From NCBI RefSeq assembly GCF_017348835.2, contig NZ_CP071375.1: a stretch of 64,000 bases of DNA; one strand, written 5' to 3'. Position 1 is the stretch's first letter; every line of letters starts with the position of its first letter. Below are positions 52,501-55,500 of the stretch, one piece after another. A program made the position numbers. The DNA is from Escherichia coli. GTDB taxonomy: Bacteria > Pseudomonadota > Gammaproteobacteria > Enterobacterales > Enterobacteriaceae.

Positions 52501-55500
52501 CTTTCTTTATTCATGCTAGCGGGTTTGTGATAATGTCATAGTAGAAAAATCGTGAGCAAAAAGCCCTGAACAATTATTAACTTATTGATTTTTGTGTGTT
52601 GATGTTTTTGGTGATTGATTTTCACGATGATCTATTACTTCTGGTTAAGATTTCTATTTTTATTATGTGTGACTTTATTAATGCGCATCCTGCTTCGTTT
52701 TATCGTGATTTAGAGTTGTATATAGCTTTAGTCATAAAATGATATCACTGGACATATAATAAGGGGGATTATAATTTCTTGGGTTAATTACGCACTATCA
52801 AAAATCGCTCATTCCAGACTTAAATACACGTTTTCTCCTGTTTAGGTTGTGGGCGAAAAAATCGATGAGGAGACGAGGTATAATTTCATTCACAACCCTA
52901 TCACTATCTATTAATAAGCAAAAAACAACGTTCTTTTGTGAAACGACTAACTGAAAATTCAACCCTTCGGGCACGCTGCAGCGAGTTTGTGGGCACTAAC
53001 ATTCGTACAAGCTTCATCTGCCGGGCGAAACGTCAGCTAAATACCTTAAAATAATCGCTTTTTTCTCCGGATTTGATCTCCTCATTTTTACATTCCAACA
53101 TCATTTTATAAACATTCCGCTTGTATTTTTCTTTACCGTAATGATAATCGCTATCACTGTGATTTACTTTTCTTTGCATAGATTGACTCAGAAAAACGTT
53201 TAAGGGTGGGTGGCATGTTTGTTCCGTTTCTCATTATGTTGCGCGAAGGACTTGAAGCCGCGCTGATTGTCAGTTTGATTGCCAGCTATCTTAAGCGTAC
53301 CCAGCGAGGCCGATGGATTGGTGTGATGTGGATTGGCGTGTTGCTTGCTGCTGCGTTGTGTCTGGGCTTGGGTATTTTCATTAACGAAACCACCGGCGAA
53401 TTTCCGCAAAAAGGACAGGAACTGTTTGAAGGTATCGTGGCGGTGATCGCCGTGGTGATCCTTACCTGGATGGTTTTCTGGATGCGCAAAGTGTCGCGCA
53501 ACGTCAAAGTGCAACTGGAGCAGGCAGTCGATAGCGCATTGCAGCGTGGAAATCATCATGGCTGGGCGCTGGTGATGATGGTCTTTTTTGCCGTTGCAAG
53601 GGAAGGGCTGGAGTCGGTCTTTTTCCTGCTGGCAGCATTTCAACAAGATGTCGGGATCTGGCCGCCGCTGAGTGCAATGCTCGGTCTTGCTACTGCCGTG
53701 GTGCTCGGCTTCCTGCTCTACTGGGGCGGTATTCGCCTCAATCTTGGTGCATTTTTTAAATGGACCAGCCTGTTTATTCTCTTCGTCGCCGCAGGGCTGT
53801 CAGCTGGTGCCATTCGCGCATTTCATGAAGCCGGATTGTGGAACCACTTTCAGGAAATCGCCTTCGATATGAGCGAGGTGCTCTCAACTCACTCGCTGTT
53901 TGGCACGCTGATGGAAGGGATTTTTGGCTATCAGGAAGCACCGAGCGTCAGCGAAGTCGCCGTCTGGTTTATTTATCTCATCCCGGCGCTGGTGGCGTTT
54001 GCTCTGCCACCACGTGCAGGGGCGACAGCGTCTCGCTCTGCGTAGCAAATACGACGCAAACTCTTGCTTAGTTACAACATACTTTAAAGGGATAGTCTCG
54101 TCATGACCATTAACTTCCGCCGTAACGCATTGCAGTTGAGCGTGGCTGCGCTGTTCTCTTCTGCTTTTATGGCTAACGCCGCTGATATTCCGCAAGTCAA
54201 AGTGACCGTGACGGATAAACAGTGCGAACCGATGACCATTACGGTTAACGCCGGGAAAACACAGTTCATTATTCAGAACCATAGCCAGAAGGCGCTGGAG
54301 TGGGAGATCCTCAAAGGCGTGATGGTGGTGGAAGAGCGGGAAAATATCGCCCCTGGCTTTAGCCAGAAAATGACGGCGAATTTACAGCCTGGCGAATACG
54401 ATATGACCTGCGGTCTGCTGACTAACCCGAAAGGGAAGTTGATCGTCAAAGGTGAGGCAACGGCGGATGCGGCGCAAAGTGATGCGCTGTTAAGTCTTGG
54501 TGGTGCAATTACTGCATATAAAGCGTATGTCATGGCGGAAACCACGCAGCTGGTGACCGACACCAAAGCCTTTACCGACGCTATTAAAGCAGGCGATATC
54601 GAAAAAGCGAAAGCACTGTATGCGCCGACGCGCCAGCACTATGAGCGCATTGAACCGATTGCTGAACTGTTCTCCGATCTGGATGGCAGCATTGACGCCC
54701 GTGAAGATGATTACGAGCAAAAAGCCGCTGATCCAAAATTCACCGGTTTCCACCGTCTGGAAAAAGCATTGTTTGGCGACAACACCACCAAAGGAATGGA
54801 TCAGTACGCTGAGCAGCTTTATACCGATGTGGTCGATTTGCAAAAACGCATCAGTGAACTGGCTTTCCCACCTTCAAAAGTGGTCGGCGGTGCAGCCGGA
54901 CTGATTGAGGAAGTGGCAGCCAGCAAAATTAGCGGTGAAGAAGATCGCTACAGCCATACCGATCTGTGGGATTTCCAGGCTAACGTTGAAGGCTCGCAGA
55001 AAATTGTTGATTTGCTGCGTCCACAACTGCAAAAAGCCAACCCGGAACTGTTGGCAAAAGTCGATGCCAACTTTAAAAAGGTCGATACCATTCTGGCGAA
55101 ATACCGTACTAAAGACGGTTTTGAAACCTACGACAAATTGACCGATGCCGACCGGAATGCACTGAAAGGACCGATTACTGCGCTGGCGGAAGATCTGGCG
55201 CAACTTCGCGGTGTGCTGGGACTGGATTAAGCGTTATGCAGTATAAAGATGAAAACGGCGTGAATGAACCGTCACGCCGACGTTTACTGAAAGGGATTGG
55301 TGCACTGGCGCTGGCGGGAAGTTGTCCGGTCGCTCATGCACAAAAAACGCAAAGTGCGCCGGGTACGCTTTCACCGGATGCACGCAATGAGAAACAGCCG
55401 TTTTATGGTGAGCATCAGGCAGGGATCCTGACGCCACAACAGGCCGCAATGATGCTGGTGGCGTTTGATGTGCTTGCCAGCGATAAAGCCGATCTTGAGC

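Follow-up and report, generated by a model that had tools for sequence, protein, structure and literature searches.

In Escherichia coli O157:H7 the EfeUOB (YcdNOB) system is described as functional, acid-induced and regulated by CpxAR (Cao et al. 2007, Mol Microbiol 65:857), whereas in the K-12 strain MG1655 it is reported to be non-functional through a frameshift in efeU (Grosse et al. 2006, as cited elsewhere). That efeU is broken in K-12 and intact in other E. coli is already known from the literature of 2006-2007, as these two reports are quoted (Grosse et al. 2006; Cao et al. 2007). Homologous efeUOB operons are described for Bacillus subtilis and Neisseria meningitidis, and the FepABC system of S. 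aureus, the EfeUOB/M system of P. syringae, FtrABCD of Bordetella and P19/cFtr1 of Campylobacter can be likened to them by their description in the literature. These systems of other bacteria have in common an FTR1-family permease that is accompanied by periplasmic iron-handling partners, and many of them are described as iron-regulated, but they differ in their partner sets (M75-only EfeM, P19, FtrA/B/D). The yeast permease Ftr1p, which works with the ferroxidase Fet3p, belongs to the same Pfam family (FTR1), and in the literature it is assigned seven membrane helices and paired REXXE-type motifs, a helix count with which our model of EfeU agrees. The likeness to the yeast protein is drawn from its description and the shared Pfam family; its partners are unrelated, in such a way that EfeO and EfeB replace the multicopper oxidase, and EfeU is shorter (276 aa, against around 45 kDa for Ftr1p).

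The DNA analyzed here, a stretch of 64,000 nucleotides from E. coli that we call the window, matches E. coli PE164 with 100% identity along 17.1 kb; PE164 is an isolate of porcine origin, from diarrhoea and blood. In the PE164 annotation, around positions 1-2210 and upstream of hyaABCDEF, the last part of a gene for a phage tail fibre is followed by tccP2 (for the Tir-cytoskeleton coupling protein), espV in truncated form and a tRNA-Ser. As markers of the pathotype, tccP2 and the truncated espV gene indicate an attaching/effacing background.

Compared with O157:H7, the operon order and the layout of the locus are the same (putP, a 447-aa ORF, efeUOB and phoH), including the 447-aa ORF and a long AT-rich spacer upstream of efeU. 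Both strains have an EfeU of 276 aa with the REGLE motifs, their EfeO and EfeB proteins are 99% identical, and the promoter-proximal sequence, with its Fur-box-like site, is nearly identical. The differences consist of a DNA divergence of 1.5-2.3%, four substitutions in EfeU, and a REP array downstream of efeB that is around 600 bp longer in the window.

The efeUOB operon

The efeU gene occupies positions 53215..54045 of the + strand as an open frame of 276 codons, from the ATG at 53215 to the TAG at 54043-54045, and no stop codon or frameshift was found inside these limits in the ORF list or in the raw sequence. The first-pass annotation had described a continuous frame of 276 aa carrying both REGLE motifs, and the ORF list, the raw sequence and the positions of the motifs all agree with that description. 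An alternative in-frame GTG is located at 53206, 9 bases before the ATG, and its use would add 3 residues; RefSeq, in annotating the identical record of PE164, starts the gene at the ATG.

The encoded protein is assigned by Pfam, NCBIfam and the RefSeq annotation of PE164 to the FTR1/OFeT-family inner-membrane iron permeases. It matches the Pfam profile PF03239 (FTR1) with an E value of 2e-88 and 296.9 bits (cutoff 25.3) over profile positions 1-283 of 284, and it scores 328.1 bits against the NCBIfam EfeU equivalog NF041756 (cutoff 255) and 345.5 bits against TIGR00145 (cutoff 303.8). In an AlphaFold2 model of moderate confidence (pLDDT 69), EfeU has seven long helices (residues 2-28, 32-60, 65-94, 115-142, 149-171, 177-205 and 245-263) and two short ones, and the hydropathy segments of the protein are consistent with the helices of the model. 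No solved structure of an EfeU relative was retrieved by sequence search, and a Foldseek search with the model gave a best E value of 0.49, with all of the matches corresponding to unrelated folds. The first REGLE motif (53242..53256, + strand; residues 10-14) lies inside predicted helix 1 (2-28), and the second one (53599..53613, + strand; residues 129-133) inside the predicted helix 115-142, which is TM4. The R, E, G and E residues of the REGLE motifs show a conservation of 90% or more among homologues, and this level of conservation holds for R10, E11, G12 and E14 of the first motif among distant homologues as well. With a full-length profile match, two REGLE motifs, seven predicted helices and an uninterrupted frame, EfeU is a member of the FTR1 (OFeT) family.

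The next gene, efeO (54103..55230, + strand; 375 codons), encodes a periplasmic protein with an N-terminal signal sequence and cupredoxin-like and M75/imelysin parts, which Pfam recognizes as Cupredoxin_1 and Peptidase_M75. It scores 479 bits against the NCBIfam EfeO equivalog (cutoff 270), its translation begins with a hydrophobic export signal ending in ANA, and it is 99-100% identical to the proteins of K-12 and O157:H7. It is followed by efeB (55236..56507, + strand; 423 codons), which encodes a DyP-type haem peroxidase/deferrochelatase with the Pfam domains Dyp_perox_N and Dyp_perox_C, a score of 618 bits against NCBIfam TIGR01412 ('tat_substr_1'; cutoff 428), a twin-arginine signal SRRRLLK at residues 13-19 of the translation, and the same 99-100% identity to K-12 and O157:H7. 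The three genes are on the + strand, with a gap of 57 bp between efeU and efeO and of only 5 bp between efeO and efeB. Adjacent, equally oriented, intact and each scoring past its equivalog cutoff, they constitute an EfeUOB operon.

Downstream of efeB, the spacer that separates it from phoH contains a REP/BIME-type tandem array at 56525-57249, composed of 7.2 copies of a 100-bp unit with 96% matches, six of which score above the gathering threshold of the Rfam family naRNA4 (RF02564, a nucleoid-associated ncRNA). No tandem array is found at the corresponding site of K-12, and the spacer of the window exceeds those of K-12 and O157:H7 by around 600 bp. The phoH gene itself (57452-58516, + strand) has its longest frame, of 354 codons, from the ATG at 57452, as in the K-12 annotation; in the RefSeq annotation of PE164 it starts 276 nt further in and has 262 codons, a discrepancy of annotation on the same sequence.

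The K-12 lesion and the distribution of the intact gene

In the MG1655 record, efeU (b4490, ycdN) is annotated as a pseudogene of 830 nt. It shares with efeU of the window its position between putP and efeO, 98% identity of the DNA, the Fur-box-like site and the promoter-proximal region, and it differs in one missing G at efeU nt 106/107 and, further upstream, in the absence of the 447-aa ORF and of most of the spacer upstream of around 53086. That K-12 carries a frameshifted efeU had been put forward in the first-pass annotation, and when both sequences were aligned, 16 substitutions and a single gap were found, which places the lesion in one deleted G. The GG doublet concerned belongs to codon G36 and is intact here at 53320..53321 (+ strand), in such a way that the sequence across the site reads GATTGGTGTG in the window and GATT-GTGTG in K-12, where the frame meets a stop after 36 codons. 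This 1-bp deletion in codon 36 cuts the first REGLE motif and helix 1, in which it lies, off from the remaining EfeU. K-12 is unable to import iron by EfeU because of this lesion, which is absent from the strain of the window.

The spread of both forms was surveyed in 5,426 complete E. coli genomes, of which 5,417 contain efeU, by exact matching of 74/75-mer queries that span the site. The deletion form was matched in 368 genomes and the intact form in 3,366, while the remaining genomes carry small differences from both queries that are below the resolution of an exact-match survey; the output is free of pseudogene flags, so the count of disrupted genes refers to the K-12-type deletion alone. 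Among the 368 genomes with the deletion form, the 60 records listed were mostly recognizable as K-12 laboratory derivatives (such as MG1655, DH5alpha, C600, J53, DH1 and NCM3722). Exact matches to the deletion being few, and those listed mostly of this origin, the K-12-type frameshift appears to be largely limited to K-12 laboratory derivatives. In agreement with the literature, E. coli normally carries an intact efeU, and the strain of the window is not peculiar in having one. As a separate observation, records labelled as plasmids hold 7 of the 5,419 efeU matches in the complete genomes, and two copies of the gene occur in a few of these genomes.

Sequences upstream of efeU

A Fur box had also been proposed from a first inspection of the DNA, and a Fur-box-like sequence, CGTAATGATAATCGCTATC, is indeed found at 53137..53155 (+ strand), 60 bp upstream of the efeU ATG, with 15 of 19 positions identical to GATAATGATAATCATTATC. 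A search of the window with the full 19-mer consensus and up to 3 mismatches gave no match, because the site has 4 mismatches, and the 16-mer core was used instead. The core, AATGATAATCGCTATC at 53140-53155, agrees at 14 of 16 positions, and no other site in the 64 kb of the window does so; 0.06 matches were expected, and at least one appeared in 6 of 100 shuffles, which corresponds to a modest significance. The sequence of the site is identical in K-12 and O157:H7, and efeU and efeO have been placed in a Fur iModulon.

On the - strand of the same region, at 53077..53187, five CpxR-box-like matches (GTAAA-N5-GTAAA, with no more than 2 mismatches) are clustered. The best one, GCAAAGAAAAGTAAA at 53163-53177, has a single mismatch. 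These five, out of 67 in the window, fall inside 111 bp, against a background of around 1 per kb. Negative control of efeU by CpxR is listed in the literature, with Cao et al. (2007) as the source cited, and from their sequence and clustering the matches may be real binding sites for CpxR.

A simple sigma-70 scan detected no promoter-like site upstream of efeU, and a promoter read by hand, TTGTAT-16-GATAAT at 53121-53148, was rejected for failing the -35 rule of the scan. With the scan empty, the position of the efeU promoter is inferred, and no promoter coordinates are claimed. The three head-to-tail genes most likely depend on one promoter located around 60-130 bp upstream of efeU.

The promoter-proximal 130 bp or so before efeU are nearly identical to those of K-12 and O157:H7. 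Collinearity between K-12 and the window begins at around 53086, approximately 130 bp upstream of efeU, and from the position of this junction the extra upstream DNA lies outside the conserved promoter-proximal region. The possibility that an upstream insertion disturbs the efeU promoter was for this reason rejected, the junction preceding the conserved 130 bp and O157:H7 being arranged alike.

Regarding the extra DNA itself, an orphan ORF of 447 codons is found between putP and efeU at 50682-52025 (- strand), present in O157:H7 and not in K-12. It gave no match in Pfam, NCBIfam or PDB and matched only PHROGs of unknown function (phrog_11707, with an E value of 8.5e-19), and its C-terminal half contains three repeats of around 62 residues with an AR(N/S)YL motif. 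The spacer that separates this ORF from efeU (52026-53214) is 1.19 kb long and AT-rich, with 33-42% GC, and is likewise present in O157:H7 and absent from K-12.

The EfeU allele and the activity of the transporter

The EfeU protein of the window differs from that of O157:H7 by the substitutions E67G, G153S, A196S and A221E, which we compared with two sets of homologues, 107 close ones (79-98% identity) and 108 distant ones (33-55% identity). Codon 153 (53671..53673, + strand) is AGT (Ser) here and GGT (Gly) in both K-12 and O157:H7. The residue is the first one of a G153xxxG157 motif located where predicted TM5 begins (helix 149-171 of the model), and it is a glycine in 106 of the 107 close and 104 of the 108 distant homologues (210 of 215 overall), with serine in 0 of 215. 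It ranks among the approximately 35 positions that are best conserved in the family, and all the other positions with at least 90% conservation are kept in the EfeU of the window. Position 67 is E or Q in the 107 close relatives, with G in none of them, and is variable among the distant ones (E, Q, A or G), 7 of 108 having G. Serine at position 196 is found in 6 of the 107 close relatives, and this position varies among the 108 distant ones, whereas position 221 varies in both sets.

At the DNA level, the coding changes that separate efeU from its K-12 counterpart are synonymous in 11 cases and non-synonymous in 4, which is compatible with purifying selection on the gene. The divergence from K-12 is even from putA to phoH (1.2-2.6%), so the efeU locus shows no sign of local decay; a local recombination patch as the origin of the rare allele was rejected on the same grounds. 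The exact protein was found on 101 public contigs, which makes it an allele in circulation rather than an error of sequencing.

These data bear on whether the permease could be impaired or altered despite its open frame. In that case the rare allele with G153S and E67G would be a natural hypomorph, or a variant with reduced or altered transport in terms of rate, metal preference or partner interaction, owing to its substitutions and above all to G153S, which falls in the helix-packing motif of TM5. The near invariance of G153, where serine never appears, goes in this direction, as do the absence of G at position 67 among close relatives and the fact that 4 of 15 coding differences from K-12 alter an amino acid. 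On the other hand, serine is small and often accepted in small-xxx-small motifs, and it may be tolerated at position 153 of EfeU; positions 67 (in distant homologues), 196 and 221 vary in the family; the allele persists on 101 contigs; and the protein, which keeps both REGLE motifs and the other conserved residues, scores well over the EfeU equivalog cutoff. The ratio of synonymous to non-synonymous changes and the even divergence from K-12 also speak against a defect. Having all this in mind, we consider a functional alteration of this allele unlikely. With G153S at a nearly invariant glycine, the function of EfeUOB is nevertheless a good prediction and not a demonstration.

The reading that we prefer is that the window carries the efeUOB operon in its ordinary wild-type form for E. 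coli, and that, as the first-pass annotation had predicted, it very probably encodes a working EfeUOB iron uptake system. The sequence itself shows the open frames, the motifs, the assignment to the families, the order of the genes, the conservation of the promoter region and the site of the K-12 lesion; the transport activity, the oxidation step and the control by Fur and CpxR are inferred from the literature. EfeU would act as a seven-helix inner-membrane permease of the Ftr1p/OFeT type, with the REGLE glutamates of helices 1 and 4 handling the iron; EfeO, a cupredoxin/M75 protein exported by Sec, would bind iron in the periplasm, and EfeB would be a DyP haem peroxidase that reaches the periplasm by Tat. 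Iron would enter the cytoplasm via EfeU, probably after periplasmic oxidation and binding assisted by EfeO and EfeB. By analogy with the near-identical promoters of K-12 and O157:H7, Fur would repress the operon when iron is plentiful and CpxR would do so at higher pH, and expression would thereby be confined to iron-poor, acidic and aerobic conditions. Iron repression and acid induction of efeU are thus expected from the conserved sequence and from what is quoted of the published work.

A working EfeUOB could also have a main role other than simple ferrous import, either the extraction of iron from haem by the deferrochelatase EfeB or the uptake of ferric iron after peroxidase-dependent oxidation. 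EfeUOB of O157:H7, with a complete efeU, has been reported to extract iron from periplasmic haem, EfeB is described as a haem peroxidase/deferrochelatase, and the family is termed 'oxidase-dependent' by analogy with yeast Fet3p/Ftr1p. Against this, Cao et al. (2007) speak of a low-pH Fe2+ transporter in their title, and RefSeq calls EfeO an 'Fe(2+) transport system protein'. Import and haem-related roles are compatible with each other and cannot be separated by sequence, and we regard a main role of this other kind as very improbable in comparison with iron import by an ordinary EfeUOB system.

For the annotation of this genome, the analysis confirms an efeU that is intact but ordinary, and its import beyond correct annotation is small. 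If the G153S allele were less active than the common one or altered, which we consider unlikely, the open frame would hide a functional change. In an attaching/effacing-type pig isolate, the intact efeUOB operon adds one predicted iron-uptake route for acidic, aerobic and iron-poor niches.
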